From the IMG/VR virus record IMGVR_UViG_3300028571_000009: a stretch of DNA of 64,000 bases; one strand, given 5' to 3'. Shown piece by piece: positions 28,916-53,473 of the stretch (within the stretch, counting starts at the first letter, position 1; each line of letters starts with the position of its first letter). A program made the position numbers and the translations under genes. The notes below the pieces were generated by a model. It made no database searches and was not told where the DNA came from. It saw nothing but the letters and a program-made list of their open reading frames with translations. The stretch is from a virus.

Positions 28916-29011
28916 AAACCGAAAGGTTCCCGGGACGGTATTAGTTTGGCGACTCACATTTGTTCCGGGTTTTCTTTTTATTTAGATATTTATATGTAGC
29001 CAAATTAATAC
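28916..29011 (+). ncRNA. HNH-associated structured RNA element, copy 1
   Basis: AACC-GAAA-GGTT hairpin; 8-bp stem plus U tract; loop pairs with 13 nt just upstream of ATG 29014. Confidence 0.7.
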
Positions 29012-29013
29012 AT

Positions 29014-29847
29014 ATGAATTACCAAAGAATCTATAACCAGATAATAGAACGTGCCCAATCGGAGGTTAGTGAACGAATATTACATAAAAAGAATGGTGGA
29101 TATTACGAAGGACATCATATTATTCCGAGATGCATGGGCGGGGAGGGCGAATCTTGTAGTTGGCTACGTAAGGGGCAACATTATCGACATCCGAACATAG
29201 TAGGTCTAACTGCAAGAGAGCATTTTCTATGTCATTGGTTATTAATTAGAATATACACTGATAATCATAGTATAGCATATGCATTCAAAAATATGTGCAA
29301 AAACTATAACAAGAGTTACACAGATTTTGTTCCTTCAAGTAGAATGTATGCCGAAGCCCGCGCACATTTAAGTATGTTAGGGCACTCGCATATGACCAAG
29401 TTACGTATGTCTACTAGTAGGAAAAATATGTCTACCGAAAATAAGAGTAAAATAGCTCTAGCAGTGAGTTTAGCTCAAAAGGGTATTCCAAAAAGTACTG
29501 CGGTTTGTTCATACTGTGATGGTGAATTTGCCGTGAATATTATAGGTCGATATCATATGGATAATTGCAAGCACAAACCGGGTAATGAAGGCGTTATTCG
29601 TCATCATTCACCAGAACATCAAAATAATTTATTCGGACCAAAACCGATTGTTACCTGTCCACATTGTGCCAAGACCGGTGGCGCGAATAATATGTTTCGA
29701 TATCATTTTGATAAATGTCGAAATAAGCCCGGTAATGAATTATTAACACATAAATTAAAACGTATTGAATGTCCACATTGTTTAACATCTATAGGAGTTA
29801 ATCGTGTATGGAATCATTTTGATAATTGTAAACAAAATAAAAAATAA
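29014..29847 (+). CDS. HNH homing endonuclease with C-terminal Cys/His repeats
   Basis: MNYQRIY, EGHHIIPRC, LTAREHFLCH; ATG 29014 preferred to track start 28960. Confidence 0.85.
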   Translation: MNYQRIYNQIIERAQSEVSERILHKKNGGYYEGHHIIPRCMGGEGESCSWLRKGQHYRHPNIVGLTAREHFLCHWLLIRIYTDNHSIAYAFKNMCKNYNKSYTDFVPSSRMYAEARAHLSMLGHSHMTKLRMSTSRKNMSTENKSKIALAVSLAQKGIPKSTAVCSYCDGEFAVNIIGRYHMDNCKHKPGNEGVIRHHSPEHQNNLFGPKPIVTCPHCAKTGGANNMFRYHFDKCRNKPGNELLTHKLKRIECPHCLTSIGVNRVWNHFDNCKQNKK

Positions 29848-29851
29848 TAAG

Positions 29852-30442
29852 ATGTACAAGATTGTATATATACATGGGTTTGGGTCGTCGGGTGAATCTG
29901 AAAAGGCCCAATTATTACGTAAAGCATTTCCAAATGATAACGTGATATCTCCTAGTTTTTCAGCAAACCCATTAGTAGCCGTTAGTCAATTACACAAAAT
30001 TCTATCATCCGGTCCAGTCCCTACTATAGTAATAGGTACATCATTAGGTGGTTTCTATGCCACATATTTAGCCGTTAGATACGATGTTCCGGCATTTATT
30101 ATTAACCCTTCATTAGAGCCGCATATTACATTACAATCATACATAGGAAAGCATAAACGTTACGGTAATAGTACAGACACGGATTATGATTTTCAAGCAC
30201 CATATATAGACGAGCTTAAAAAGTTGTTTGATAAAATGCATGCATCTGATAAAGCCGGTAGTAATTTACATTTTTATCTATCTACCGATGATGATGTATT
30301 AACATACGAAAAGCTAGATACACTGTTTCCAAATAGACAGCACGTAAAAACCTTTAATAATTCCGGGCATAGGTTTTCCAAATTCTCAGAAATATTTCCG
30401 GATATTCAGAAAGCGTTAGATAAATTCCCAAAAAAGAAATAA
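29852..30442 (+). CDS. YqiA/YcfP-like alpha/beta hydrolase (esterase)
   Basis: IHGFGSS, GTSLGG, INP, DD, GHRF. Confidence 0.85.
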   Translation: MYKIVYIHGFGSSGESEKAQLLRKAFPNDNVISPSFSANPLVAVSQLHKILSSGPVPTIVIGTSLGGFYATYLAVRYDVPAFIINPSLEPHITLQSYIGKHKRYGNSTDTDYDFQAPYIDELKKLFDKMHASDKAGSNLHFYLSTDDDVLTYEKLDTLFPNRQHVKTFNNSGHRFSKFSEIFPDIQKALDKFPKKK

Positions 30443-30475
30443 TTTGGTAAGGTAATTAATATTCCTTATATTTAG
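30443..30475 (+). promoter_or_regulatory. putative promoter TTTGG-N19-TATATTTAG
   Basis: fixed-spacing motif. Confidence 0.6.
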
Positions 30476-30502
30476 ATATTGTTAATTTCAAATAAATAAG
30501 TT

Positions 30503-30745
30503 ATGAAAACTGTAAAAAAGGGTACTGAATACAAACGCGTATCAGACACCGAAGCCTACCATCTGGTAGAATTTAAGGGTTGGAACTTTGCTAGTAAAGA
30601 AGAATGGAAGAAAAATGTTAGAGACGAAGGTAAGGCCGCCCCAGTAACGGCGCCTGGTCAGGCTCCTGATAGAAATCCTACAACAGACACTCCGGTACCT
30701 GTTAAGGAAAAGAAACCGAAAAAGGATAAAAAAGACAAGAAATAG
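30503..30745 (+). CDS. small basic hypothetical protein
   Basis: ORF track; Lys-rich tail. Confidence 0.65.
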   Translation: MKTVKKGTEYKRVSDTEAYHLVEFKGWNFASKEEWKKNVRDEGKAAPVTAPGQAPDRNPTTDTPVPVKEKKPKKDKKDKK

Positions 30746-30845
30746 AGTTAATGACGACAACGACTCGATTCCTAAAAAATTCTGAAACTAATGAAAAAGT
30801 TTCTTATATTGATATAGTAAAAAGTCGTGAACTACAAAAAAGACA

Positions 30846-31772
30846 ATGGAAAACGGCATAAAGATGACACGATTAGGGTATGCTTGCATTAATCTTTCAA
30901 TACCATGTTCACCGAGCTTGAATATGCGAAAGAATACGTTTTTATCTAAAGGAAAAGAATATGCCGGCGCTCTTGCACTAAACAACGTTAAGATGCTTAG
31001 CAAAATCTTCCAATGGAATGAGGATAATAATATCAGAGTGTATAGAATGTCATCTGACATGATTCCATGGATGTCAGAGTATGAGCTCAACGAGCTTCCA
31101 CAGTTTAACGAAATATCACCAGTACTATCAAGCGCAGGTGCTCTGGCAAGGAAATATGGGCACAGATTATCATTTCATCCCGGGCCATTCAACCAATTGG
31201 CATCTATGAAAAGTAATGTCGTAACTAGAACTATTAAGGAACTTAACCAGCACTCAGAGATAATGGACCTTATGGGGTTTCCTGCCAACCATATGACAAA
31301 AATTAACATACACGTAGGTAACGCTGCTGAGGGTAAGGCTGACGCAACCAATCGATTCTGTGAAAATTTTAAATTACTAAACGATGGTACGAAAAAACGA
31401 TTAGTGGTGGAGAATGATGACAAATCGGGCCTATATACTATGCAAGAATTATACGAGCTCGTTCACAAGAAAATAGGCGTACCACTAACTTTCGATTACC
31501 TCCACCACTATTGTAACCCGGGCACATTAACAGAAAAAGAAGCGCTAACGTTAGCCGTATCAACCTGGGGAGAAGTTACTCCATGTGCACATTACTCATC
31601 ATCAAAAAAGCTCTGCGAAGATAACACTGCTAAATTACTTTCTCACGCTGATTACGTTTACAATGTAATAGATACATACGGTTTTGACCTTGATATTGTC
31701 ATCGAAGCTAAAGCTAAGGATTTAGCTACATTGTCATACGTTAAAAAACATTCTAGTGTTCTTCTTAATTAA
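30846..31772 (+). CDS. uvsE: UV damage endonuclease (UvsE/UVDE)
   Basis: LGYACIN, YRMSSD, SFHPG, NIHVG, VENDD, FDYLHH, HYS, HAD, IEAKAK. Confidence 0.92.
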   Translation: MENGIKMTRLGYACINLSIPCSPSLNMRKNTFLSKGKEYAGALALNNVKMLSKIFQWNEDNNIRVYRMSSDMIPWMSEYELNELPQFNEISPVLSSAGALARKYGHRLSFHPGPFNQLASMKSNVVTRTIKELNQHSEIMDLMGFPANHMTKINIHVGNAAEGKADATNRFCENFKLLNDGTKKRLVVENDDKSGLYTMQELYELVHKKIGVPLTFDYLHHYCNPGTLTEKEALTLAVSTWGEVTPCAHYSSSKKLCEDNTAKLLSHADYVYNVIDTYGFDLDIVIEAKAKDLATLSYVKKHSSVLLN

Positions 31773-31829
31773 GAAATGATTTGGAAGTTAAAATAGAATT
31801 ACTTAAATTAGAGTTAAAATTAGAAGATT

Positions 31830-32711
31830 ATGGAGAATAATACATTGTTAGTTAGTAGCGCATTCTATTCGGTACAAGGCGAAGGTAAAACCGTCGGCGT
31901 TCCTGCATATTTCATAAGATTAGGTTTATGCAATCTATCGTGCGGAATGTCTAAGAAATTCATGAATCAATTAAAGAAAGATAAGTCTTTAGCTGATGGT
32001 GAAATATTCAAAGGTGATTTAGAATTGGAAGGAAAAGCCAGCTGGACCTGTGATTCTACAAGCCAATGGTTATGGCGAGGTGAAGAAAAATCATTTCAGT
32101 ATATTATTGACCGTTGGAAAGAGCAAGGTATCTATGAAGATATTAAGTCAGGTGTAATCCATATTATCTGGACTGGTGGAGAACCAACGCTACCTAGACA
32201 TCAAGAAGCTATTGTTAATTTTACTAAATATTGGGTGACACAGGACCCAAAAGTAGAAAATAAATTAAGACAATATAATATAGTTAGTTTCGAGCCATAC
32301 TATATAAATAGAACTTCCGGTTTCTATGAAATAGAAACAAATGGTACAATCTATATAGAACAAGAATTGTTCGAATATTTAAACCAAATAAATTGTAGTC
32401 CAAAATTATCCGATTCTGGTATGACCGCTAAACAGCGTATTAACCCAGATGCTATCAAACGTATTATGGACCATAAAAACTATCAATTCAAGTTTGTAAT
32501 TAGTACAGAAGATGATGTGAAAGAAATGTTTCGTGATTTCATAGAACCATTTAACATTCCGTTAAAAAATGTGTATTGTATGCCGGGTCTAGATAATAGA
32601 GAAGATTTTCACGAAAGAACACGATTCGTATTTGAAATGGCTAAGAAGTATAAATTTATTGGTAGTACAAGACTTCACATCAGTTGCTGGGATAAAACCT
32701 TAAACGTATGA
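31830..32711 (+). CDS. queE: 7-carboxy-7-deazaguanine synthase (radical SAM)
   Basis: FYSVQGEG, FIRLGLCNLSC...CD, TGGEP, IETNG, SPK, RLH. Confidence 0.9.
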   Translation: MENNTLLVSSAFYSVQGEGKTVGVPAYFIRLGLCNLSCGMSKKFMNQLKKDKSLADGEIFKGDLELEGKASWTCDSTSQWLWRGEEKSFQYIIDRWKEQGIYEDIKSGVIHIIWTGGEPTLPRHQEAIVNFTKYWVTQDPKVENKLRQYNIVSFEPYYINRTSGFYEIETNGTIYIEQELFEYLNQINCSPKLSDSGMTAKQRINPDAIKRIMDHKNYQFKFVISTEDDVKEMFRDFIEPFNIPLKNVYCMPGLDNREDFHERTRFVFEMAKKYKFIGSTRLHISCWDKTLNV

Positions 32712-32875
32712 TACAGTTTGATAAACTCGGTTATTACTGGATTCTATGGAGCGACGGTGACGATGGAATCATGTTGTACCAACCGTCAGATAATACTACC
32801 GGACTAACTCCGTTAGCGTATTTAGGTGTTGGATTTGATGAATTCACGAAAATGTATAAAACTATCGCATCATGA
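32708..32875 (+). CDS. small hypothetical protein (55 aa, not in track)
   Basis: ATGA overlaps at both ends; MIQFDKLGYYW... Confidence 0.6.
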   Translation: MIQFDKLGYYWILWSDGDDGIMLYQPSDNTTGLTPLAYLGVGFDEFTKMYKTIAS

Positions 32876-33072
32876 ATCACGAACGCGTAGGTCGTTTACG
32901 GCAATTACTGGTGGATTATAAAGATATACAACGAACATCTGAACAGCTTGTCCCATCCAATGCACTAGAAATGCGATTAAAATCGATTATGCAACAAATG
33001 GCAAAAGCGAATGTTGAAATTATAAAAATTATTGAAGCGGAATTAACTAAAGAATTACAAAATGAAAATTAA
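32872..33072 (+). CDS. hypothetical protein
   Basis: ORF track. Confidence 0.55.
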   Translation: MNHERVGRLRQLLVDYKDIQRTSEQLVPSNALEMRLKSIMQQMAKANVEIIKIIEAELTKELQNEN

Positions 33073-33298
33073 AGTAACACAAGAAAACCATTATGTGGTA
33101 GAAACACGTGGCATTAAGAAAGGTGATGTACTTACCGTTAGAAGTTTCGGTCAAGCAGAGCAAGCAAAACGTGGGAAAGCATATTTAGTCGACGGTAAGA
33201 CGGCTGGTAGTGCTCCTATTGTGATATATGAAGATGAATGCGAAATAGTCGCCGAGCGTAGTAAGCGAGCAATTAACAATCCAACAACACCATTCTAA
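33062..33298 (+). CDS. hypothetical protein
   Basis: ORF track. Confidence 0.55.
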   Translation: MKIKVTQENHYVVETRGIKKGDVLTVRSFGQAEQAKRGKAYLVDGKTAGSAPIVIYEDECEIVAERSKRAINNPTTPF

Positions 33299-33299
33299 T

Positions 33300-33641
33300 A
33301 TGAAAGCACTATACACAAAATTTTTGAATTTTCTTCGCAACCGGTCAAACCCGAAAGTATTACGTACCGATTTAGTTACGTATAAATCAATACGTAAACA
33401 GGTCGACCTAGTTAATCAGCTGGTAATTAAGCCTGATTTTATGGCGCGCAATAACAACCCGTATTTTGATAAAATCAACCTACATGAATATAATTTAGAT
33501 TTATTGTCTGAGGAAGCGAAGCAAAAGATTGTATATGTTATTCATGAAGACAATATTATTAGAGCTAATGAGTTTGAAACTCGAGTATGTGTAGCTAATA
33601 ATGGTGTTGGGTACAATGACGTCATGACACTTCCGGAATGA
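33300..33641 (+). CDS. hypothetical protein
   Basis: ORF track. Confidence 0.55.
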   Translation: MKALYTKFLNFLRNRSNPKVLRTDLVTYKSIRKQVDLVNQLVIKPDFMARNNNPYFDKINLHEYNLDLLSEEAKQKIVYVIHEDNIIRANEFETRVCVANNGVGYNDVMTLPE

Positions 33642-33901
33642 AAAAGAAAGCTGCAAAGAAGCGTGCTAAACGCGAGGCAAAAGTTAAGGAGCATCAGTAT
33701 GAACGCATATGTACAATACAAAAGGTTCAACATCAATACGATTGGTGCTTACTAGAAATTCCTTGGATATCTACTAATAAGACACACGCAAAAACCGAAT
33801 ATCTTGGATTAGGTACTATCCATTCAATAGATGGAGTTAAACGAACCGATAAACGGTTATATCACTTCTTTAAGAAAATCACAAAACGAAAAGTAAAATG
33901 A
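33638..33901 (+). CDS. hypothetical basic protein
   Basis: ORF track; ATGA overlaps. Confidence 0.55.
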   Translation: MKKKAAKKRAKREAKVKEHQYERICTIQKVQHQYDWCLLEIPWISTNKTHAKTEYLGLGTIHSIDGVKRTDKRLYHFFKKITKRKVK

Positions 33902-34533
33902 GAAGAAAAAGAATAGTGTGTTTCGACTTTGAAACAACCGGCTTGGACTTTATTAAAGACCAACCAATTCAATATGCTGCACAATCTGTAGAAGTTGATG
34001 GTAGTATGAAATCAATTACGGGCTTCATAAATTATGATGGTACATTATCAGAAATCATTAAGAACCTAACCGGTATTGATGATAGCATATTACGTCAGCA
34101 CGGTGAGCCATACGAAGCCGGTATGGAGAAGCTACTTAAATTTATCGGAGTGAATAAAATATGTCCAGATAATGATACAATATTAGTTGGACATAATATG
34201 TTAAACTTCGATATTCATTTTCTTGATATGGCGTGCGGTAAGCTCGGATATGACACGATTAACCCAAGACTCTATTGGGACACTGCGGGGTGCTATAAAG
34301 CTCATAAACTAGCGCTAGTAAAGAGCGAGAGTGAAACTGTAGCTGAGTTCCATAAACGTGGTTTAGATACATACGCAAAAGGGCTTAAATTTAGGCTACC
34401 GGTTGTATGCGAAGCGATGGGTGTTGAATTTAAAGAAGACCATAGAGCAGATAGTGATACCGCAGCAACTCTTAAAGTATTCCTTAAACAAGCACAACTT
34501 TATAACAATCATTTCCACGAATTATTAAATTAA
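33898..34533 (+). CDS. DnaQ-like (DEDDh) 3'-5' exonuclease
   Basis: FDFETTG, GHN..NFD, HRADSD. Confidence 0.85.
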   Translation: MRRKRIVCFDFETTGLDFIKDQPIQYAAQSVEVDGSMKSITGFINYDGTLSEIIKNLTGIDDSILRQHGEPYEAGMEKLLKFIGVNKICPDNDTILVGHNMLNFDIHFLDMACGKLGYDTINPRLYWDTAGCYKAHKLALVKSESETVAEFHKRGLDTYAKGLKFRLPVVCEAMGVEFKEDHRADSDTAATLKVFLKQAQLYNNHFHELLN

Positions 34534-34559
34534 TTCAATAATTTTCCTTATATTAAGTT

Positions 34560-34919
34560 ATGACTCGAATAAATGTAGGCGTACCGCCACGTGAATTGAC
34601 AGGTAGACATTTAATAGCTGAACATAGAGAAATTAAAAGAATTCCAAATACCGTACGAAGCGGTAAGGCTGTTATTAAGAATATACCCGAATCGTTTACG
34701 TTAGGCCCGGGACACGTTAAATTCTTCTACAATAAATTGAAATATCTTAAAAATCGATACGAAGAGATTTACTCTGAATGTAAAGCCCGCGGATATAATG
34801 TTACATACTTCGGCGATGCGTGGGATAGTATACCAGTACATTTAATGAATGACTATACACCTGCAGCACGCGACAGAGACATTATATTACAGCGTATTCA
34901 TGAAAGATTATCTTCATAG
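34560..34919 (+). CDS. denV: pyrimidine-dimer DNA glycosylase (T4 endonuclease V-like)
   Basis: MTRIN, HLIAEHREIKRI, FTLGPGHVKFFYNKL. Confidence 0.9.
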   Translation: MTRINVGVPPRELTGRHLIAEHREIKRIPNTVRSGKAVIKNIPESFTLGPGHVKFFYNKLKYLKNRYEEIYSECKARGYNVTYFGDAWDSIPVHLMNDYTPAARDRDIILQRIHERLSS

Positions 34920-34973
34920 ATATTTTAACGACTCAACAATTTTTCTTATATTAATACAAAATAAATAATCTAC

Positions 34974-35006
34974 ATGATTGAATATCCAAAAATGTTGACT
35001 CAATGA
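34974..35006 (+). pseudogene. orphan 5' stub of dpdA (MIEYPKMLTQ*)
   Basis: matches DpdA start MTVYPKM; sits behind its own promoter-like motif upstream of the HNH cassette. Confidence 0.6.
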
Positions 35007-35016
35007 TATTTATACT

Positions 35017-35114
35017 AAACCGAAAGGTTACCTGGAACGGTATTGGTTTGGCGACTTTATATTAGTTCCAGGTTTTTTATTTTCTAGATATTTATATGTA
35101 AGCCAAATCAATAC
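35017..35114 (+). ncRNA. HNH-associated structured RNA element, copy 2
   Basis: same architecture as copy 1 with compensatory changes. Confidence 0.7.
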
Positions 35115-35116
35115 AT

Positions 35117-35932
35117 ATGAATTACCAAAGAATCTACGATTCGATTATCAATAACGCAAAGTTATTAGAAGAGTCAAGAAAATTACAAAAGAAGCAGAAA
35201 CTTAATTATTTCGAACGACATCACATTTTACCGAAATGTTTGGGTGGTAATAATGATGAAAGTAATCTAGTTTATCTAACGGCAAAAGAGCATTATCTTT
35301 GTCATCGATTATTAGTTGAAATATATCCTGAAAATAGAAAGTTGAAATATGCTATTTGGTTAATGGTAAGCGGATATAGTATAACCAAACAACGATACAT
35401 CCCTTGTAGTAGAATATATGAGCAAATTAAACGATTACATGCAGATAATGTAGCCGCTCAATTTATTGGTAAGCCCAAATCTATTGAACATCGCAAGAAA
35501 TTATCTGATAGCAATATCGGCAAAACATTATCGATTGAACGTAGATTGAAAATGTCCAATACGCTACGTGGTATGAAGAAGTCCGAGGAGACTAAACGTC
35601 GGATGACTAAACCGAAGCCAATTGTTACTTGTCCGCATTGCGGAGTAACCGGGGGCAAAAATACTATGGTCCAATGGCACTTTGATAACTGTAAATCACT
35701 GCCCGGTAATGAACACATACATGATATTAGAACTAATACATTACATGAATGCCCGAAATGTGGTATAAAAAGTACAGCATTATCAAATATGGTTCGATAT
35801 CATTTTGAAAATTGCGGAAAGAAAGTTGATTTACGAAAATGTCCATATTGTGGAAAAGAAATGGATGCTAGAAATGCTAAGAAGTATCATTTCGATAATT
35901 GTAAGTTAAAGAATTTGGTAATTGTAAGATAA
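35117..35932 (+). CDS. HNH homing endonuclease with NUMOD3-like and CxxC repeats
   Basis: FERHHILPKCLGG.N..SNLVYLTAKEHYLCH. Confidence 0.85.
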   Translation: MNYQRIYDSIINNAKLLEESRKLQKKQKLNYFERHHILPKCLGGNNDESNLVYLTAKEHYLCHRLLVEIYPENRKLKYAIWLMVSGYSITKQRYIPCSRIYEQIKRLHADNVAAQFIGKPKSIEHRKKLSDSNIGKTLSIERRLKMSNTLRGMKKSEETKRRMTKPKPIVTCPHCGVTGGKNTMVQWHFDNCKSLPGNEHIHDIRTNTLHECPKCGIKSTALSNMVRYHFENCGKKVDLRKCPYCGKEMDARNAKKYHFDNCKLKNLVIVR

Positions 35933-35945
35933 ATTGTTATATTAG
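35914..35945 (+). promoter_or_regulatory. putative promoter TTTGG-N19-TATATTAG for dpdA, carried in the HNH 3' end
   Basis: fixed-spacing motif. Confidence 0.55.
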
Positions 35946-35961
35946 AAAAATAAATTAAACT

Positions 35962-37200: not shown

Positions 37201-37209
37201 ACATAAAAC

Positions 37210-40039: not shown

Positions 40040-40078
40040 TTTAGGCCTAACTTGCATATATTTATATAAAAGAATAAA

Positions 40079-45454: not shown

Positions 45455-45482
45455 TTATCAATAGCACTAAACCGCTTGAGAT

Positions 45483-45743
45483 GTGTCTGCATGGTATCTT
45501 TGGGTGTTACTGAACTATCATTCTGTAGATACTAATAAAATAGATTTACATATTAAGAATACTCACGAATTAGTTAAACAACGTAATAATTTAGATTTAC
45601 GAATACCAATGAATAACAATTACACTTTCGAGGGTCAAATGTATAATTGGCTAGAAATTCGTGCAGGTGTCAAGTTCGTATTCCATACAAAGTCAGGGAT
45701 AACAATATCAACTCAGATTAAATTTCCTTCAATTATTCAATAA
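45483..45743 (+). CDS. hypothetical protein
   Basis: ORF track, GTG start. Confidence 0.4.
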   Translation: MSAWYLWVLLNYHSVDTNKIDLHIKNTHELVKQRNNLDLRIPMNNNYTFEGQMYNWLEIRAGVKFVFHTKSGITISTQIKFPSIIQ

Positions 45744-45762
45744 ATTTCCTTATATTAGTGTT

Positions 45763-46146: not shown

Positions 46147-47140
46147 ACATCCGCAACTATTTATTGTTATTGACCCAATGTGGGCGGGTGTCGGTTGGGA
46201 ACATGATTTGGAAAAAGTAATCATAGATTATCTAGCAAATCGGCCGGCAGTTATCCAAACAGTACAAACTGTTATAGGGCAAGATGCTATTAAAGCATTA
46301 TTTGACAATAATCAAGTTAAAAAGAATGCCGCGTTTCTATTTACTGAAGCCTCGTCTGATTTAGTGATACTTGTCAATAAGTTTTCAAAGCAATATAAGG
46401 TTCCGGTGTATACATTGGGATTCTGGAGACGGGGATATTCTGCTGAATACACCCATAACAGTTCGTGGGAACAGCATTGGTGGAAAGAATTCGACCGGGC
46501 ATGTTTTAAAGGCTTGGAACGTAATATATTTTCAGACGAATACTTTAAGCATATATTCACTAAACAAGTAGCAAAGAAGGGCTACCCATATAGTATAATA
46601 AAGTTTCCGATACCAGCATCTGTTATTAAGGAGCATTTATTATCTATACAACCGGTAGAGTTTAAAACGGATATGATATTGATAGATGGTGTACATTTTA
46701 ATCCTGAACAGCATAGAATGTTAGCATTACTGATGTCAGAGATGAAATTCGATAAACCAATATCAATTGTATTTGCTTATGAAAACGGTAGACCTACACG
46801 TGAACAATATGTGAAATGGTTAATGAATGCAAAGGTAGTAATCAACTTCGATGTACAAGGAAAGATTGGTGATGATGTATATGAATATTATGCGGCCAAA
46901 TGTATTCCGTTGTGTAATGCCCCAGAATTCTATGAGAATATTGTACCGGAAGAGTGGAGAATAGAAAAAGAATGGTTCGCTGATATCAGAGCATTTATTG
47001 ACGCTATGCCTATCCTTCGAAATAAGTTGTATGACGTACTTATGAATTATGATGAATTACGTCCCAAATTAGACTTTCAAGAAAAGCGGTTAAACACATT
47101 ATATTTCAACCATGAAATATTTCTTGAAAAATTCTATTAA
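46052..47140 (+). CDS. diverged GT-B-like protein (true start probably near 46136)
   Basis: organisation parallels ORF 41853 (TREQYVKWLMNAKVVINF vs TKEEYHKLLGEAKIVFS). Confidence 0.5.
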   Translation: MQRNYCNFLIVPLYPYLKMVKMVLKCLFMICRHPQLFIVIDPMWAGVGWEHDLEKVIIDYLANRPAVIQTVQTVIGQDAIKALFDNNQVKKNAAFLFTEASSDLVILVNKFSKQYKVPVYTLGFWRRGYSAEYTHNSSWEQHWWKEFDRACFKGLERNIFSDEYFKHIFTKQVAKKGYPYSIIKFPIPASVIKEHLLSIQPVEFKTDMILIDGVHFNPEQHRMLALLMSEMKFDKPISIVFAYENGRPTREQYVKWLMNAKVVINFDVQGKIGDDVYEYYAAKCIPLCNAPEFYENIVPEEWRIEKEWFADIRAFIDAMPILRNKLYDVLMNYDELRPKLDFQEKRLNTLYFNHEIFLEKFY

Positions 47141-47183
47141 ACATGAATTAAATTAGTTATATTAATCAAAATAAATAATCAAC

Positions 47184-47897
47184 ATGAAAAAGTCAAAATT
47201 GACAAGTTTTATTGACAAGTATTTTCTAGCAGGAAATGCTGAAAGCGTTAAGCTCGTAGTGCAGAATAATAAACTGACTACCAAATTTATAACAGGTGAC
47301 CAAACCGTTATCGGCGAAGTTGAATTAGCTGATTTTGTATCGGAAGATGCTGAATTCGGTGTATATACAACCGGTCAGTTAATTAAGATGTTATCGGCAT
47401 TAGATGATGATATTGATTTGACATTCCATAGAGCAGACAGTAAAGTTTACTCATTAACGATGGATGACAAAACTACTCACGCGGATTATATGCTATCAGA
47501 CCTAACAGTAATTCAGCAAGTTCCGGCTATTAAAACCTTACCGACATTCGATGTAAAAATTGAATTGACAAAGGATTTCACTAGTAAATTCATTAAAGCA
47601 AAGAATGCCTTGCCAGATGCAGATAATTTCGCAGTGGAATCGGATGGTACCACTACAAACATTATTATCAATCACTCTAATGTGAATGCTAATAAAGTAA
47701 CGTTCAAAGCAGTTACTGCTAATGCAAGTGCGATGAGTCCGGTGTGTTTTTCGGCAAAGCTATTTAAGGAGATTCTTGAAGCTAATAAAGATTGTACCGG
47801 TTTCTTAGAAATCAGCAGTAAAGGTTTAGGTAGAGTTACTTTAGCAAATAAAGAATTTTCAACCACGTATTTTCTTGTGAAACTTTCAATCAACTAG
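47184..47897 (+). CDS. DNA sliding clamp (gp45/beta-like)
   Basis: size, acidic repeating beta pattern, position near clamp loader. Confidence 0.75.
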   Translation: MKKSKLTSFIDKYFLAGNAESVKLVVQNNKLTTKFITGDQTVIGEVELADFVSEDAEFGVYTTGQLIKMLSALDDDIDLTFHRADSKVYSLTMDDKTTHADYMLSDLTVIQQVPAIKTLPTFDVKIELTKDFTSKFIKAKNALPDADNFAVESDGTTTNIIINHSNVNANKVTFKAVTANASAMSPVCFSAKLFKEILEANKDCTGFLEISSKGLGRVTLANKEFSTTYFLVKLSIN

Positions 47898-47898
47898 G

Positions 47899-48465
47899 AT
47901 GAATAATTGGTACGTTGGTATTGACCCTGGTAAGAGTGGTGGTCTAGCAACCATATTTGAAAATGGTGATGTCGAAGTAGAACCATTACCGTTAACTGCT
48001 GATAATGAAATTGATGTCGAGCGCTTGGCGGCGACACTACGCGGACTCTTTATACAAATACGTGACTTACGTCCGGCTGAGCCGGGAAAGATATATTGTG
48101 TTCTTGAAGACGTGCACTCTATATTCGGAATGTCTGCCAAGTCCAACTTTCAATTCGGACGCGTTTTAGGTATCTTAGAAGGTGTTCTAGGAGCTGTCGG
48201 TATTGACTTTATAAAGATTACACCAAAGGTCTGGCAGAAAGAAATATGGGCTAATACGACACCGATTTCTGCACTCACCGGGAAGAATCTTAAGAATGGT
48301 ACGCCACAAGTTAAAATAGATACTAAAGGTACATCATTAATGGTAGCGAAAGAATTATTTCCTAATGTGAACTTGTTAGCTACTAAAAGAAGTAAGGTTC
48401 CACACGACGGAATTGTGGATGCTCTACTTATTGCTGAATATTGTAAAAGAAAATTTAAGAAATAA
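47899..48465 (+). CDS. RuvC-like Holliday junction resolvase
   Basis: VGIDPGKSGG, LEDV, FGR, DGIVDALLIA. Confidence 0.8.
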   Translation: MNNWYVGIDPGKSGGLATIFENGDVEVEPLPLTADNEIDVERLAATLRGLFIQIRDLRPAEPGKIYCVLEDVHSIFGMSAKSNFQFGRVLGILEGVLGAVGIDFIKITPKVWQKEIWANTTPISALTGKNLKNGTPQVKIDTKGTSLMVAKELFPNVNLLATKRSKVPHDGIVDALLIAEYCKRKFKK

Positions 48466-48467
48466 TT

Positions 48468-49394
48468 ATGTTTGGAAATGATGAACACACCCTATGGGTG
48501 GAAAGGTACCGGCCGACAAAGCTATCAGATTACATTGGTAACGATGGAATCAAAGAGAAAGTTGCAATGTATATTCAGAATGACGACGTGCCACACTTAT
48601 TACTTGCGGGAACTGCTGGTACGGGTAAAACAACGTTAGCGAAATTAATTGCTGCAAATCTAGATTGCGATTTACTATATATCAACGCGTCCGATGAAAA
48701 CTCGATTGACGTTATGAGAGATAAAGTTAAATCTTTCTCGAGCTCAATAGGATTCAGAAAATGGCGATTAGTAATTCTGGATGAAGCAGATTTTGTCACT
48801 GTTAATGGTCAAGCCGCGTTACGTAACTTGATGGAGACATTTAGTAAGAACTGTAGGTTTATTCTAACATGTAATTACATTGAGAAGATTATTGACCCAA
48901 TTCAAAGTAGATGTCAGACATTTATTGTAACCCCGCCTAGTAAGCAGGACGTTGCGGTGCACATAGCAAATATTCTACAGAAGGAGAATGTTAAGTTTAC
49001 ACCGCCTGATTTGGTTTCTATTATCAATAATGGATATCCTGATATCAGAAGAATTCTTAATGCGTGTCAGCGTCAAGTTATAGACGGGCAATTAGTAATT
49101 GATAAGCAGTCACAGATTGAAAGTGGTTATATGGAGAAGATTCTTGATATCTTAAAAGATTGTAAGGATAAGAAAAAATCATTTGCTGATATCAGACAAA
49201 TCTTGGCTGATTCGAAAGTTAGGGACTTTACTCACTTATATAAGTTCTTGTATGATAGCTTAGATATATTTGCTGTCGGGCATATTTCTGCAGTTATATT
49301 GATAATTGCGGAAGCGCAGTATAAGGACGTAAGTTGTGTAGACAAAGAAATCAACGTCGCCGCGATGTTTGTACAGTTAATGAGTGAGCTATAA
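48468..49394 (+). CDS. clamp loader large subunit (gp44/RFC-like)
   Basis: WVERYRP, GTAGTGKTT, NASD, LDEAD, SRC. Confidence 0.92.
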   Translation: MFGNDEHTLWVERYRPTKLSDYIGNDGIKEKVAMYIQNDDVPHLLLAGTAGTGKTTLAKLIAANLDCDLLYINASDENSIDVMRDKVKSFSSSIGFRKWRLVILDEADFVTVNGQAALRNLMETFSKNCRFILTCNYIEKIIDPIQSRCQTFIVTPPSKQDVAVHIANILQKENVKFTPPDLVSIINNGYPDIRRILNACQRQVIDGQLVIDKQSQIESGYMEKILDILKDCKDKKKSFADIRQILADSKVRDFTHLYKFLYDSLDIFAVGHISAVILIIAEAQYKDVSCVDKEINVAAMFVQLMSEL

Positions 49395-49510
49395 TCAATC
49401 TATAGAATTTTGGTTGATTGATAAGATATCTATTAGATGTACTGTTACCGCGTCGACGTTCTATCTACGATAAAATTGGATAATTGAAATTAATTTCTTA
49501 TCTTAATAAT

Positions 49511-49765
49511 ATGAAGAAAACTAACGAAGAAATAATTGAATCGTTTCGTTCCTACAAACGAACTAATACGGCAGGCTTTACAAATAAAGAACTGGCTATT
49601 TTATGTGAACAATCCGGCGTGGATGTAAAGAAATTAAACGAAGAGATTGGTGTAGTTACTGTTATGCTTATAAATAACGAGTCTGTAATATATGAGTGGG
49701 ACGTAATGCCCGCATTACAACGTACATTAACAGGAGAAAAACAGCACCCATTAGCTTGGGACTAA
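49511..49765 (+). CDS. hypothetical protein
   Basis: ATG downstream of promoter motif 49476-49505; track start 49484 lies in the promoter. Confidence 0.55.
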   Translation: MKKTNEEIIESFRSYKRTNTAGFTNKELAILCEQSGVDVKKLNEEIGVVTVMLINNESVIYEWDVMPALQRTLTGEKQHPLAWD

Positions 49766-49769
49766 CATT

Positions 49770-50114
49770 ATGATAAAAAACTCAACATTACATATAGGCG
49801 GAAATTCTGTTAAGGAATTCATTGGTAAGTTTATATCGGCAGTCGGTACCGCAATGGTTACATATGGTGATAAGCTCGATAAAAATAGTCAACCGATATT
49901 AGTAACAAACCCGGCAGCGAAGCTATACAACCCATTTACCCTGATAATTACATTCACAGTCGGGGCGACGGACAAATATCAATTGATTCTACAAGGTGAT
50001 TATAAGGATATGTATAAAGAAATCGCCAGGCCGGAGTGTGAAATTGATTTAGATGATAATGAATTATTCATGATTATCAATCAGCATCAAAAAGAATGGT
50101 TTAAAAAAGACTAA
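49770..50114 (+). CDS. hypothetical protein
   Basis: ORF track. Confidence 0.55.
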   Translation: MIKNSTLHIGGNSVKEFIGKFISAVGTAMVTYGDKLDKNSQPILVTNPAAKLYNPFTLIITFTVGATDKYQLILQGDYKDMYKEIARPECEIDLDDNELFMIINQHQKEWFKKD

Positions 50115-50116
50115 AC

Positions 50117-50362
50117 ATGAAATTTCTAACATTAATAATATTACAAGATATCATGTATAAATTATTCAAAGCGTTTCTGGTTTTCGCAGGTATAGTATTC
50201 TTGTATATATGGGCGGTACAAATATCATTAGCCTTTAAGACCGAATCGGACTATAGGTCACAGAATGTCGCCATTCAGAGAGAACGTGATTCGTTGCAGG
50301 TAGAATCTCTACGATTGCAGCTTAAGTTACAGACGTTTATAGACTCGGTAAAAATACAGTAG
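50117..50362 (+). CDS. hypothetical membrane-anchored protein
   Basis: hydrophobic helix then coiled coil. Confidence 0.55.
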   Translation: MKFLTLIILQDIMYKLFKAFLVFAGIVFLYIWAVQISLAFKTESDYRSQNVAIQRERDSLQVESLRLQLKLQTFIDSVKIQ

Positions 50363-50363
50363 T

Positions 50364-50669
50364 ATGCAACAAGATGACGTAATACAAAAATTACAGGACG
50401 CACATCAGAAATATGTTGATTGGTGGTTGCCTATCGATGTAGCAGGTGGTTCTTTCATGGCACCGATGTCACTTCACCGATTTTGCGAAACACTACTAAC
50501 ATACGACGGTGGGTGGGGCGGTACTGATGGTGAACAAATCGAGAATTGGTGGGATGCTTGGATGGATGAACATGATATTAATAGTAAAACACGAATGAAG
50601 ATACAGATTCTAAAATTGGTGATAGCACATTACACCGATGTAATAGATTTAAACAAGTCATATGAATAA
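50364..50669 (+). CDS. hypothetical protein
   Basis: ORF track. Confidence 0.55.
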   Translation: MQQDDVIQKLQDAHQKYVDWWLPIDVAGGSFMAPMSLHRFCETLLTYDGGWGGTDGEQIENWWDAWMDEHDINSKTRMKIQILKLVIAHYTDVIDLNKSYE

Positions 50670-50802
50670 AGAACAAGCAAAAGACGCACTAATTAAACTT
50701 CTAATGAATCAAGTCGAAGACTTAACCATGATGTCTAAGATTGAATTGGGTGATGATGTAATTGCTGAAATTACACGACTTAAACGCATTATCAATGAAT
50801 AA
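50662..50802 (+). CDS. small hypothetical protein (46 aa, not in track)
   Basis: ATG 50662, overlaps both neighbours. Confidence 0.55.
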   Translation: MNKEQAKDALIKLLMNQVEDLTMMSKIELGDDVIAEITRLKRIINE

Positions 50803-51010
50803 AGAACAATACGCTGTGTTTGAAAAAGAACCAGCACATGGAAGCGAAGTAAACGGTGTTATACTAGCCCCATTCTACACCAAAGAAGAAGCCGAACAAG
50901 CAAGACAAAAATACGGATATGGTAACGAAAATTATTACGTAGATAAAATGAAATTTGATGAAGTCCCTAGAAAAAGTAACAACTCGTACGATGACAAATA
51001 CACTAGATAA
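50795..51010 (+). CDS. hypothetical protein
   Basis: ATG 50795 within track ORF 50762. Confidence 0.5.
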   Translation: MNKEQYAVFEKEPAHGSEVNGVILAPFYTKEEAEQARQKYGYGNENYYVDKMKFDEVPRKSNNSYDDKYTR

Positions 51011-52265
51011 ACAATACACAGACCTCCTCCAAGACATACTTGATAATGGAGTAAAAAAAGAAACGAGGAATGGTAAAACATTAAGTGTATTTGGCAGAAA
51101 CATTAGATATAAATTTAAAGATGGTAAATTTCCTTTACTTACAACAAAAAGGATTCCTTTTAAAACTATTGTAACTGAGTTATTATGGTTTCTAAGAGGT
51201 GATACAAACATCAAATACCTTGTTGACAACAATTGTCATATCTGGGATGGCGATGCTTATAAGGCCTCCCAGACTCGTAATGGTAAATGTTATTGTGGTC
51301 ATACATCGACTTGCGATTGTGGAGATATCTCGCAGAGTGAGTTTATTGAGCGAATCAAAAATGATGATGAGTTTGCTAAGACGTGTGGTGAATTAGGGCC
51401 AATTTACGGACGTCAATGGAGAAATTGGAATACAAATGCAATAAGTAGAAGAAGTTCTGGTACTATAAATGAAGATGGTATTGTAGAGAATATGATTTTT
51501 ATTGAAGATTCACCAATACATATAGACCAAATCGCAAACCTGATCAACGAACTTAAAACAAATCCAGACTCAAGACGATTAATGGTTAATGCTTGGAATG
51601 TAGGTGAATTAGATCAAATGGTTCTTCCACCTTGTCATTATGGATTTCAAGTTTATACAAGAGAGTTGAGTTTGGAAGAAAGGGAAAATTTGATGGATAA
51701 AATATATGGTTTAACAAAAGAAACCCGAATAGTACCTTGGAATATATTAGATATTAATAAAGCCAACATTCCAACAAGAACGTTCTCATTAATGTGGAAC
51801 CAACGTTCAGTAGACACATTCTTAGGTTTACCATTCAACATTGCTTCTTATGGTTTACTACTTGAAATAATTGCTAAAGCAGTTAATATGGTTCCTGATG
51901 AATTAATAGGAAACTTAGGTGATGTACACCTTTACAGTAACCATGTTGAACAAGCAAAAAAACAAATTGGTAGAGAGTTTACAGAAGAAGAAATACAAGA
52001 ACACTTAATGCAATCAGGTATGGATGCTTTGATGGAGAAACCAAGAATGGAATATATTTCCAAGCTACCAAAACGAACAAGAGAACCATTCCCATTACCA
52101 ACATTAAACATTAATACAGAATTCTGGCTCACCAAGACAGGTGAGTGTGGTGTTGGTGATTTGACTGATAATATCGATGCATTGATTAATGGGATGCAAG
52201 TCGAAGATTTCCAAATAGAAAATTATCAATCGCACGGGACAATTAAAGCACCGTTATCAAATTAA
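50955..52265 (+). CDS. thyA: thymidylate synthase with insertions (start probably at MTNTLDKQY)
   Basis: FPLLTTK, ELLWFLRG, LGPIYG.QWR, LPPCH, NQRSVDTFLGLPFN, DVHLYSNH. Confidence 0.95.
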   Translation: MMKSLEKVTTRTMTNTLDKQYTDLLQDILDNGVKKETRNGKTLSVFGRNIRYKFKDGKFPLLTTKRIPFKTIVTELLWFLRGDTNIKYLVDNNCHIWDGDAYKASQTRNGKCYCGHTSTCDCGDISQSEFIERIKNDDEFAKTCGELGPIYGRQWRNWNTNAISRRSSGTINEDGIVENMIFIEDSPIHIDQIANLINELKTNPDSRRLMVNAWNVGELDQMVLPPCHYGFQVYTRELSLEERENLMDKIYGLTKETRIVPWNILDINKANIPTRTFSLMWNQRSVDTFLGLPFNIASYGLLLEIIAKAVNMVPDELIGNLGDVHLYSNHVEQAKKQIGREFTEEEIQEHLMQSGMDALMEKPRMEYISKLPKRTREPFPLPTLNINTEFWLTKTGECGVGDLTDNIDALINGMQVEDFQIENYQSHGTIKAPLSN

Positions 52266-52268
52266 TTA

Positions 52269-52631
52269 GTGATGGAAATAAAAAAAGTAGATTACGAATT
52301 AGTAAAACAAACTTTTAAAGACCTAAAACCGGACCTATTAGATGAACACGCTACTTATTACGGTTGTTTAATTAAAGATGAGTTAGCAGGAATAGTTTCA
52401 TATGTTGAACATGAATCTGTTATTTATTTATGTCATGCATATGTTAAAGAAGACTATAGAAATAGAGGCATATATAAAATGCTTTGGAATTACAGAGACT
52501 CAAAGATACGAGAGTCTGAAAAGGTAGTTTATTCCCATTGTAATGTCAATAGTCTAAAATATTTTATAAACAATGGATATGAAATAGAAAAAGCATTATT
52601 TAAAGTTATAAAAATAGATAAACAGTTATGA
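52269..52631 (+). CDS. GNAT-family acetyltransferase
   Basis: AYVKEDYRNRGIYKML, SLKYFINNGY. Confidence 0.8.
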   Translation: MMEIKKVDYELVKQTFKDLKPDLLDEHATYYGCLIKDELAGIVSYVEHESVIYLCHAYVKEDYRNRGIYKMLWNYRDSKIRESEKVVYSHCNVNSLKYFINNGYEIEKALFKVIKIDKQL

Positions 52632-53050
52632 AATTACAAGAATTAAAAGAATGGATAGAATCATTACCGGTTGAATTTCTTGAATACCCAGTTGTATTTG
52701 GTGAATCTATAGATATCGACACGGAATCATGTTATCGAAGGGACTCTGCTATAGAATTGCTATACATCGATGAGGCTGTAGATTGTAAAAGAGCAGTGTT
52801 GGGTGTCGACCTAACACCGCCCGGCGCTATACCATCTCTTGTGGCGGCTACGCAGGAGTTAATTGATAAAACTCTTGAACTTCTCGAACCTACAGTATGC
52901 ACCAAAACAACCGTACAATTCCGTTTTCCAAATGAGACAGAGTATAATGAGCTAAAATGTTTTGATTTTGCTGACTTTGTAGAAGATACAGTATTCGAAA
53001 ATGAGATATCGGGTATGTATACAGGTTCATTCATCATTATTAAGAAATAA
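52628..53050 (+). CDS. hypothetical protein
   Basis: ORF track; ATGA overlap. Confidence 0.55.
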   Translation: MKLQELKEWIESLPVEFLEYPVVFGESIDIDTESCYRRDSAIELLYIDEAVDCKRAVLGVDLTPPGAIPSLVAATQELIDKTLELLEPTVCTKTTVQFRFPNETEYNELKCFDFADFVEDTVFENEISGMYTGSFIIIKK

Positions 53051-53136
53051 CATATCGCTGACCTTCTTAGGCAGCGATTAAGAGCTTGGTTTCTTCAAGT
53101 AATAATCTTATATTAAATACATAATAAAGCAGTTAT

Positions 53137-53361
53137 ATGATAATACCATCAATAGGCGGTACACCGCCCGAACCAAAGCAAATTGATTTCTCCAAAACGA
53201 CCGATATTCTATGCGAATGCGGAAACGATGTATTCATGCCGATGATGAAGTTTAAGAACTTATCAGCAATTGCAAGTCCTAACGGTAAAGCAGGTATAAT
53301 TCCTTGTGAATGCTACGTTTGTACAAAATGTGGTAACATACCTCCGGAATTAGATATATAA
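53137..53361 (+). CDS. small zinc-ribbon protein
   Basis: CECGN...CTKCG; promoter motif 53086-53115 upstream. Confidence 0.7.
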   Translation: MIIPSIGGTPPEPKQIDFSKTTDILCECGNDVFMPMMKFKNLSAIASPNGKAGIIPCECYVCTKCGNIPPELDI

Positions 53362-53374
53362 CAATATTTATATT

Positions 53375-53473
53375 AAACCGAAGGGTTACCCGGGTTGTGT
53401 TAGTTTCGCAACTACAATGCACCCGGGTTTTTTGATACAGTTTTTGATATTTATATGTAGCGAAACTAACACA
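53375..53473 (+). ncRNA. HNH-associated structured RNA element, copy 3
   Basis: AACC-GAAG-GGTT; CCCGGGT/ACCCGGG stem plus U tract; 14-bp loop-leader complement. Confidence 0.7.

Follow-up and report, generated by a model that had tools for sequence, protein, structure and literature searches.

Three HNH homing endonuclease genes of an uncultured T4-like phage are each preceded by a folded RNA unit whose terminator-like loop is complementary to the nuclease leader

Homing endonucleases must be expressed strongly enough to spread and weakly enough to spare the phage that carries them. The only worked-out solutions to this problem known to us come from T4, and they are simple hairpins that hide the ribosome binding site. 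In an uncultured T4-like phage, the same folded RNA unit lies directly 5′ of each of three HNH homing endonuclease genes, which raises the question of what this unit does for the gene that follows it. The window, that is, the whole 64,000-nt stretch of DNA that was analysed, has no genes on the minus strand, and 8.5 kb of it gave no megablast match among 50,697 phage records. The host phages are T4-like and probably infect Bacteroidota. The nuclease genes, with a gene remnant at the left edge of the first cassette, are as follows.

28903..28917, + strand: orphan 5′ stub (ATG AGC AAG ATT TAA) of an interrupted esterase-like gene, left cassette edge of copy 1
29014..29847, + strand: copy 1 HNH homing endonuclease (MNYQRIY..., 277 aa; phrog_655, E = 2.5e-39; zinc ribbons)
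35117..35932, + strand: copy 2 HNH homing endonuclease (271 aa; phrog_655, E = 7.5e-55)
53475..54416, + strand: copy 3 HNH homing endonuclease (313 aa, NUMOD3 motif)

Mob-type genes of T-even phages share about 36% identity with the copy 2 nuclease. The esterase-like gene at copy 1 has a restored start, ATGTACAAGATT, at 29852, past the HNH stop. An earlier note on this DNA had located the three elements and described in each a small hairpin, a GC-rich stem, a U tract, a conserved motif and a loop complementary to the leader. We confirmed the positions, the Mob-type HNH gene directly downstream of each, and every one of these features. The sequence AACCGAARGGTT has three sites in the window, all at these elements and nowhere else. 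We designate the parts as a small hairpin (H1), a terminator-like hairpin (S1) with an “anti-leader” in its loop, a hairpin at the start codon (H3), and promoter-like motifs upstream of H1 (P1) and within H3 (P2).

28917..28928, + strand: copy 1 H1, 4-bp hairpin AACC-GAAA-GGTT, adjoining the terminator stem
28929..28979, + strand: copy 1 S1, stem CCCGGGAC (28929-28936) with GTTCCGGG (28962-28969), loop 25 nt, T tract 28970-28979
28938-28950, + strand: copy 1 anti-leader GTATTAGTTTGGC, pairing with leader GCCAAATTAATAC (28999-29011), which is the H3 loop plus 3 nt
28986..28994, + strand: copy 1 P2, promoter-like motif ATATTTATA
28988..29019, + strand: copy 1 H3, 11 bp, 5′ arm ATTTATATGTA inside P2, 3′ arm TACATATGAAT holding the AUG (29014-29016)
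35006..35014, + strand: copy 2 P1, promoter-like motif, with H1 starting 3 nt past it
35018..35029, + strand: copy 2 H1, hairpin AACC-GAAA-GGTT
35031..35083, + strand: copy 2 S1, stem CCTGGAAC (35031-35038) with GTTCCAGG (35065-35072), loop 26 nt, T tract 35073-35083
35040-35052, + strand: copy 2 anti-leader GTATTGGTTTGGC, pairing with leader GCCAAATCAATAC (35102-35114)
35088..35122, + strand: copy 2 P2 (35088-35096) nested in H3, arms 35090-35100 with 35112-35122, AUG 35117
53364..53372, + strand: copy 3 P1, promoter-like motif
53376..53387, + strand: copy 3 H1, hairpin AACC-GAAG-GGTT
53388..53433, + strand: copy 3 S1, stem (A)CCCGGGT (53388-53395) with ACCCGGG(T) (53421-53428), or 53389-53395 with 53421-53427 less the bracketed letters, then T tract
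53396-53409, + strand: copy 3 anti-leader TGTGTTAGTTTCGC, pairing with leader GCGAAACTAACACA (53460-53473), 14 bp, perfect
53447..53480, + strand: copy 3 P2 (53447-53455) nested in H3, arms 53449-53458 with 53471-53480, AUG 53475

A motif written as ATATTTATAT had been listed in the earlier note and is indeed present; its probable identity as a promoter motif of the phage had been missed. All 15 occurrences of ATATTTATA are on the coding (+) strand and intergenic, mostly 5-38 nt before start codons that have no Shine-Dalgarno sequence (SD). This position and strand bias suggest that ATATTTATA is the phage’s own promoter-like motif, with a start site just downstream. We also considered a T4-type late promoter on the minus strand (TATAAATA, the reverse complement of the motif) and rejected it; all 15 sites precede plus-strand genes, and minus-strand genes are absent. 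A second ATATTTATA just 5′ of H1 in copies 2 and 3 had likewise been overlooked, and its discovery makes the small-RNA reading of the element concrete. Three relatives of the window copies (L014, L069 and L209, from IMG/VR and metagenomes) bring the family to six members, which fall into two sequence groups. In five of the six, P1 or a version of it with one change stands at equal spacing before H1: the motif is intact in three, carries one change in two (L014 and L209), and is absent from copy 1. At copy 3, the stop codon of a 74-aa upstream ORF directly precedes P1. P1 could instead be a resident promoter of the interrupted gene.

The hairpin S1 is found in all six members as a 7-10-bp stem with at least four G-C pairs, followed by TTTT(C/T)T.... 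Its loop measures 21-37 nt, compared with the 3-8 nt typical of intrinsic terminators, and is atypical for an efficient one; a consensus terminator scan that admits loops of up to 8 nt did not call S1 for this reason. Inner pairs in the S1 loop may lengthen the stem. H1 is varied in L014 (AAACG/CGTTT), with a C-G to G-C covariation. Taken together, promoter, 5′ hairpin and terminator look like an RNA gene of about 60-75 nt. A promoter directly before a terminator is sensible only if the short RNA is itself useful.

The other hairpin, H3, joins the promoter sequence to the AUG region and had also escaped the first reading. It is predicted in all six members (10-11 bp, three different arm sequences), with the promoter-like P2 overlapping its 5′ arm. 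In L014 and the three window copies, the 3′ arm includes the AUG; in L069 and L209 this arm ends 1 nt before it. On its own, H3 is weak and AU-rich (-6 to -11 kcal/mol). The earlier note had set the element apart from the “simple hairpins” of T-even homing endonucleases. That contrast was mistaken, since the element itself contains a hairpin of this kind, predicted to lock the AUG and with a putative promoter nested in it, as in the I-TevI/mobE type of T4.

The most distinctive feature of the unit is the long-range helix between the S1 loop and the leader. Its loop strand is GTATTAGTTTGGC, GTATTGGTTTGGC and TGTGTTAGTTTCGC in the window copies, an 18-bp bulged helix that reaches the AUG in L014, and TTAGTTATGTTGCTA and TTAGTTGTGTAGC in the other two relatives, each complementary to its own leader. 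The helix spans 13-14 bp in the window and 13-18 bp over the six members, and in every case it either covers the AUG or stops 1-8 nt short of it. When the six were aligned with MAFFT, the loop arm of L069 and L209 fell three columns out of register; for this reason, window-type helices were computed per sequence by script. The duplex energies are -18 to -23 kcal/mol, whereas shuffled loops average -4 to -7, and in each member at most 1 in 2000 loop shuffles matched the observed value. RNAalifold, unprompted, chose the loop/leader helix as the six-member consensus, with six pairs changed on both sides.

The comparison of copies 2 and 3 is instructive. Identity between them is 97-100% in P2, in the H3 arms and over the initial 90 nt of the coding sequence. 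Their leader arms disagree at 4 of 13 positions, of which three are matched by changes in the loop and the fourth turns a G-U into a G-C; the compensatory substitutions claimed earlier are thus borne out, with no disruptive change among the copies. One change in copy 3 breaks the top pair of H3 yet is matched in the S1 loop. The loop/leader helix, on whose conservation in homologues the earlier note had staked its reading, is kept in all three relatives, even though the paired sequence is largely different in two of them. Judged from these six sequences, the loop/leader base pairing is real and under selection.

Two further properties bear on how the helix might form. The complementarity runs beyond the H3 loop into the H3 arms, so that the full helix competes with H3, as expected for transcripts that lack this hairpin. 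In addition, every one of the six members shows pairing between the predicted apical loop of S1 and the opening 4-6 nt of the RNA expected from P2. A dimer of the two RNAs is energetically favorable in every member even when S1 must open (ddG -1 to -12 kcal/mol); these values are conservative, as RNAcofold cannot model loop-to-tail pairing with S1 closed. No other targets of the S1 loops were found within the window.

The module most likely serves to keep nuclease production low. Our tentative preference is for a mechanism in which the S1 loop occludes the SD-less nuclease start region, in trans on transcripts begun at P2 and in cis on read-through transcripts. The module would then have two parts. 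One would be an sRNA-like unit composed of P1, H1 at the predicted transcript start, and the terminator-like S1, whose large loop would display an anti-leader of 13-15 nt. The other would be P2, the second promoter copy, set within the 5′ arm of H3; the opposite arm of this hairpin contains the nuclease AUG or ends next to it. Transcription entering from upstream would mostly stop at S1, and the transcripts that read through would carry all of H3 as well as the anti-leader, locking the start region in cis. Transcripts started at P2 would lack the H3 5′ arm and have their 5′ end almost exactly at the leader arm. The apical loop of the terminated RNA, whether this RNA comes from P1 or is the 3′ end of upstream messages, could capture that free end. 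The resulting duplex over the initiation region would keep nuclease translation low, in whatever shares the trans and cis routes contribute, and P2 would still drive transcription of the resident downstream gene. The earlier note had offered a silencing RNA of about 65 nt acting in trans or a cis pseudoknot. Both remain the leading readings, with the pairing real and under selection, and the pair was incomplete as an account of the element. Nothing was found in support of a guide-RNA or ribozyme role, which had already been rated less likely.

Relatives of a different kind place the element in a wider context. Kissing-loop leaders of two types, which we call B and C, precede diverse homing endonuclease genes, including the MNYQRIY HNH family, in uncultured Bacteroidota-type phages, and are absent from Rfam. 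They share with the window element the promoter motif, which again supplies the 5′ arm of a hairpin, and complementarity between the loop of that hairpin and the loop of a terminator-like one. The pairing sequence of types B and C is hypervariable and always complementary (in type B, 6/7 pairs changed on both sides and 0/500 shuffles). The order of parts differs: types B and C have the promoter hairpin, the terminator hairpin, a T tract and then the AUG, whereas in the window type the terminator hairpin, equipped with its own promoter and 5′ hairpin, comes first and the AUG belongs to the promoter hairpin. The window type also has the longer helix (13-18 bp versus 7-9 bp). By this comparison of sequence and order, the window element is a permuted variant of the type B and C leaders and not a plain member. 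Types B and C carry both pairing partners in one transcript, which favors an intramolecular role.

That arrangement speaks for a purely cis-acting lock, an alternative that we regard as possible but somewhat doubtful. Here, the terminated RNA would have no function of its own and S1 would insulate the cassette from upstream transcription. In the minority of transcripts that read through, the S1 loop would pair with the H3 loop or leader as a kissing complex or pseudoknot, reinforcing H3 over the AUG, and translation would come solely from unregulated transcripts initiated at P2. Such a lock extends the I-TevI/mobE paradigm of T4 directly, and the weakness of H3 alone makes reinforcement plausible. 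Further, the anti-leader begins 0-1 nt past the S1 5′ arm in four members, allowing S1/S2 stacking, and P1 is absent or mutated in three of the six. However, such a lock leaves unexplained why five members have a promoter at fixed spacing immediately ahead of a terminator, and why the complementarity starts at the predicted +1 of P2 and extends into already-paired H3 arms, to the AUG in L014. A stable terminated RNA with so strong a complement of the mRNA 5′ end would, moreover, pair in trans anyway. Another, improbable, alternative is that the contact sets RNA fate or transcription rather than translation initiation, as an RNase III-type processing site, by protecting the 5′ end of P2 transcripts, or by modulating termination and read-through. 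The guanidine-IV riboswitch provides a precedent, in that a kissing contact decides whether its terminator forms. The partner of the terminator loop in types B and C precedes the terminator and is distant from the AUG, and translation occlusion is accordingly not a function of the whole superfamily. But transcription of the window-type unit reaches the leader arm only after the terminator, this arm hence has no influence on termination at S1, and the constant proximity of the helix to the AUG is what translational occlusion leads one to expect.

The interleaved inverted repeats might also act at the level of DNA, by serving as the nuclease's operator or by forming a single-strand structure for recombination. 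I-TevI does repress itself through an operator that overlaps its own late promoter (PMC2988022), and the helices are almost wholly Watson-Crick and so say little about strand specificity; counts of G-T and A-C combinations in type B (6 versus 3) likewise do not separate RNA from DNA. Nevertheless, a DNA-level role appears very improbable. The operator version was dropped because helix alleles do not follow nuclease identity: copy 1 and L014 have nearly the same helix and nucleases only 39% identical, copies 2 and 3 have an almost identical N-terminal domain and different helices, and one type B loop allele precedes both HNH and GIY-YIG genes. A G-T pair in copies 1, 2 and L014 pairs on the transcribed strand only. 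Interleaving with a terminator stem and a promoter hairpin is, in addition, the layout of a folded single strand.

The element has affinities with several known systems. In the T4 family, I-TevI, I-TevII, I-TevIII, segB and mobE of Aeh1 have leader hairpins with nested late or middle promoters (PMC2988022, section 12). As there, a hairpin would hide the translation start of a Mob-type nuclease homologue, and a promoter-like motif in or next to its 5′ arm would let self-initiated transcripts escape the lock. The differences are that the phage start has no SD to sequester, so that “RBS sequestration” does not apply literally to the weak H3; that a second, stronger, covarying helix ties the leader to an upstream terminator loop, in place of a single local hairpin; and that an extra promoter precedes the terminator. 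The T4 free-standing endonuclease genes mobE and segF also have intrinsic terminators in or before the gene (PMC2988022, section 11). S1, a GC-rich stem with a U tract, is similarly placed to limit transcription into a homing endonuclease gene, but its large loop holds an antisense segment, unlike the T4 loops of about 4 nt.

RNA-OUT and RNA-IN of IS10/Tn10 exemplify antisense “multicopy inhibition” (PMC5006887, introduction). RNA-OUT is short and stable, and by pairing at the extreme 5′ end of its target it prevents the ribosome from binding. The stem-loop RNA predicted here would likewise belong to a mobile element, and it is complementary to the mRNA of that element’s own DNA-cutting enzyme at the 5′ end, where translation begins. 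A terminator-like end is present in all six members and an intact P1 motif in three. RNA-OUT is encoded on the opposite strand, whereas the putative regulator here is on the same strand, in tandem and upstream of its target. Its complementarity of 13-18 nt requires co-evolution, and a single read-through RNA could form this pairing internally as well. Type I toxin-antitoxin systems with non-overlapping small RNAs, such as tisB/istR-1 and zor/orz, offer a further parallel: a short RNA is encoded next to a gene whose product may do harm, and it pairs with the 5′ leader of that gene over about 15-20 nt. Those pairs are divergent, not tandem, and their targets are small hydrophobic membrane peptides; the target here is a phage homing nuclease of about 30 kDa (271-313 aa), with no sign of addiction or post-segregational killing.

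A search of Rfam, as the earlier note had proposed, gave no match at the gathering score in the window and seven related loci, including to the HEARO/omega RNA of IscB, riboswitches and group I introns; at E <= 1 over the elements, only chance-level hits (sR35 and mir-19) appeared. Pattern scans for the promoter hairpin returned only L014/L082 and unrelated genes with a promoter/AUG hairpin, those for H1 plus S1 gave 19 chance matches in GC-rich contigs, and those for terminator, P2 and TAGC yielded no new members. After scanning IMG/VR and one metagenome, the family total remains six.

The element appears to be a different and more elaborate solution to nuclease control in SD-less phages, combining a terminator, a duplicated promoter and a co-evolving long-range RNA helix, and it ties the window to a widespread class of RNA leaders absent from Rfam. 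It is conceivable, though rather unlikely, that the homing cassettes of such uncultured T4-like phages carry their own allele-specific tandem antisense sRNA, the terminator loop of which captures the 5′ end of the nuclease mRNA. Were this so, the bimolecular pairing would act as a sensor of genome copy number, much as multicopy inhibition works in IS10: production of the nuclease would be confined to the time when there are few phage genomes and would cease as their number rises. Paralogous cassettes in one genome, having diverged in the pairing sequence, would be controlled independently of one another. These cassettes and the permuted kissing-loop leaders would then form a large superfamily, so far undescribed, of RNAs that regulate selfish nucleases. 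A short RNA acting in trans would be the first case known to us of a base-pairing small RNA devoted to a homing endonuclease, and a same-strand, tandem analogue of transposon antisense control. The loop/leader pairs are compact and, between copy 3 and copies 1 and 2, orthogonal; they could become programmable translational switches.

In the Mob-type homing-endonuclease cassettes of the window, the element that precedes each nuclease gene is a genuine RNA module under selection, for which we infer a control function. The three stretches given in the earlier note align over about 100 nt and end at the ATG of three paralogous genes:

29014-29847, plus strand, HNH homing-endonuclease gene behind copy 1
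35117-35932, plus strand, HNH homing-endonuclease gene behind copy 2
53475-54416, plus strand, HNH homing-endonuclease gene behind copy 3

Every copy has the 5' to 3' order H1, S1, ATATTTATA, leader segment, ATG. The small 5' hairpin H1 is the 4-bp AACC-GAAR-GGTT structure described before, and this word is found at copies 1-3 only within the window. S1, the terminator-like hairpin, directly adjoins it; the GC-rich stem, large loop and U tract of the earlier description are here a stem of 7-10 bp, a loop of 21-26 nt and a T tract. The 13-14-nt leader segment does complement part of the S1 loop, with the ATG 1-2 nt further on. To this anatomy we add H3, a hairpin of 10-11 bp that appears in minimum-free-energy folds with a promoter-like motif (P2) in its 5' arm and the AUG in its 3' arm; alone it is weak (-6 to -11 kcal/mol). 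The claim that the main stem varies while staying paired holds for S1, whose stem pairs despite different sequences, and likewise for H3.

All three nucleases match phrog_655, a PHROG homing-endonuclease family (E = 1e-39 to 1e-55), and by tblastn they share about 36% identity with free-standing HNH genes of the Mob type in T-even phages. The window has a GC content of 36%, carries every gene on the plus strand and includes a T4-like module for replication and nucleotide metabolism (family-B DNA polymerase, thymidylate synthase, clamp-loader subunit, denV); a search of 50,697 deposited phages with 8.5 kb of it brought up no close relative. Shine-Dalgarno (SD) sequences are absent from all genes in the window, which fits a Bacteroidota-type host.

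The word ATATTTATA, 3' of S1 in each copy, has 15 occurrences in the window where 5.8 would be expected. Every one of them lies on the coding strand, and nearly all are intergenic, 5-38 nt ahead of SD-less start codons; for these reasons it is best read as the phage's predicted promoter (-10-like) element, a reading absent from the earlier note. Example sites among the 15 are:

2884, 6974, 21177, 23271, 40058 and 58296, plus strand, ATATTTATA

Several start codons stand just 5-13 nt behind the word, which suggests that mRNA leaders there are very short or absent. Read on the opposite strand, the word is also identical to the T4 late-promoter consensus, TATAAATA(T); nonetheless its sites are on the coding strand, ahead of plus-strand genes, replication genes among them. 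Copies 2 and 3 have a second occurrence upstream (P1), and H1 starts 3 nt after it.

The loop/leader pairing is confirmed as real and not a product of chance. The compensatory substitutions that had been claimed are present: relative to copy 1, copy 2 has one A-U to G-C exchange and copy 3 has one G-U to G-C change besides two double exchanges, none of them disruptive. Copies 2 and 3 are 97-100% identical in P2, the H3 arms and the first 90 nt of coding sequence; their leader arms (the 13-nt mRNA segment just before the AUG) differ at four positions, of which three are matched in the loop and the fourth turns G-U into G-C. A search of IMG/VR and JGI metagenomes with nuclease protein and DNA patterns found three further members with the window architecture. 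One (L014) has AAACG/CGTTT as its H1 and a bulged loop/leader helix of 18 bp that extends to the AUG; the helix is TTAGTTATGTTGCTA in L069 and TTAGTTGTGTAGC in L209, the latter with two more double exchanges relative to the former. Across the six members the duplex energy is -18 to -23 kcal/mol, a value reached by at most 1 in 2000 loop shuffles per member. RNAalifold, unprompted, returned H1 and the long-range loop/leader helix as the consensus, with six pairs changed on both sides; the window type comprises these six members only, in two sequence groups that MAFFT does not set in one register.

Related modules were seen when the regions upstream of 78 IMG/VR nuclease homologues were inspected. 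In these permuted modules, the promoter motif is the 5' arm of hairpin 1, whose loop (7-9 nt) is complementary to the loop of the following terminator-like hairpin, and the nuclease ATG comes 3-4 nt after the T tract. Two permuted leader types occur before homing-endonuclease genes in the following IMG/VR loci:

L023, L033, L034, L049, L053, L058, L230-L250 (alignment A4)
also L002, L016-L018, L020, L026, L027, L029, L040, L051, L054

Their loop alleles are hypervariable yet always complementary. For one type, 20 distinct sequences were gathered; its 7-bp loop-loop helix is paired in 96% of cells, six of the seven pairs are changed on both sides, and neither any of 500 shuffles nor any slid control comes near. 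The same leader, and even the same loop allele, is found ahead of both HNH and GIY-YIG genes, so the RNA module is independent of nuclease type. Relative to this kissing-loop design, the window element is circularly permuted and has a longer helix. The Rfam check proposed in the earlier note was run, and neither the window elements nor their permuted relatives match any family.

How might the module act? The loop/leader helix covers the AUG or comes within 1-8 nt of it, and the mRNAs have no SD sequence; thus, occlusion of the initiation region is its simplest effect. We infer promoter activity, start sites, termination and repression, and routes in cis and in trans are both physically available. 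In cis, read-through transcripts would hold H3 and the leader together with S1, whose loop could strengthen the weak H3. Four observations suggest that the terminated short RNA has a role of its own. In five of the six members H1 is preceded at constant spacing by P1 or by a remnant of it with one change, and a promoter running straight into a terminator would otherwise be pointless. With -10-type spacing, H1 would be the start of P1 transcripts, and the first leader-arm base that of P2 transcripts. Further, the complementarity runs past the H3 loop into the H3 arms, and copy 3 has a substitution that disrupts the top pair of H3 but finds its counterpart in the S1 loop; selection therefore acts on the full helix in a configuration incompatible with H3, as P2 transcripts would have. 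Finally, in all six members the predicted P2 transcript pairs through its first 4-6 nt with the predicted S1 apical loop, and the complex of the two RNAs is favourable even at the cost of opening S1.

Against a trans role, P1 is absent from copy 1 and could instead be native to the gene that the cassette interrupts, and the permuted relatives hold both pairing partners in one RNA. We consider combined trans and cis action quite possible, at somewhat less than even confidence, and action in cis only rather unlikely. Some different role at the RNA level strikes us as improbable. Other targets of the S1 loops were sought within the window and none was found. Strand-specific (G-U) evidence for pairing in RNA is thin. 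A DNA-level role, such as that of an operator, is very improbable, and the helix alleles do not track nuclease identity as one would expect of it.

The module has partial precedents. H3, with P2 in one arm and the AUG in the other, is the design of I-TevI, I-TevII, I-TevIII, segB and Aeh1 mobE, in which only the transcripts that start at the nested promoter, without the 5' arm, are translated (PMC2988022). The S1 RNA would take the 5' end of the nuclease mRNA much as IS10 RNA-OUT captures that of the transposase mRNA (PMC5006887), but the window regulator lies in tandem with its target, on the same strand. The module joins the nested-promoter hairpin, a known device, to one that is undescribed, in which a terminator loop is antisense to an mRNA 5' end.

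In the IMG/VR loci L021, L022, L024, L030 and L038, the region about 60 nt before the ATG resembles a minimal form of the design: a terminator hairpin (ATGCCTATTTA...TAAATAGGCAT plus T tract) stands immediately ahead of the HNH ATG and has the promoter motif CTATTTATAATA within its 5' arm. Transcription arriving from upstream would end there, and self-initiated transcripts would escape. A promoter-plus-AUG hairpin (ATATTTATATGTA...TACATATG) stands before non-nuclease genes of other uncultured phages (L081, L083-L085, L087, L089), without an upstream terminator module. L209 (metagenome contig Ga0129333_10034751) carries two copies of its start region at 4660-4700, ATGAATT ATGAATTATC; the upstream copy, which is out of frame, supplies the H3 3' arm, and the real start comes after. 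Three tRNA genes lie 400-2300 nt upstream in this contig.

The copy 1 cassette is inserted after codon 4 of the downstream UPF0227/esterase-like gene (window 28903-28917 and 29848-29870), leaving a stub, ATG AGC AAG ATT TAA, upstream and a new start, ATG TAC AAG ATT GTA..., after the HNH stop. The N-terminal catalytic domains of the copy 2 and 3 nucleases are nearly identical (two residue differences in the first ~90 aa; 35117-35400 versus 53475-53760) but their C-terminal zinc-ribbon/NUMOD parts differ, which suggests that DNA-binding domains are shuffled between cassettes. The thymidylate synthase ORF (50955-52265) encodes 436 aa and aligns with a 335-position profile over the profile's full length, and thus has an insertion, perhaps an extra domain or intein-like, of about 140 aa.
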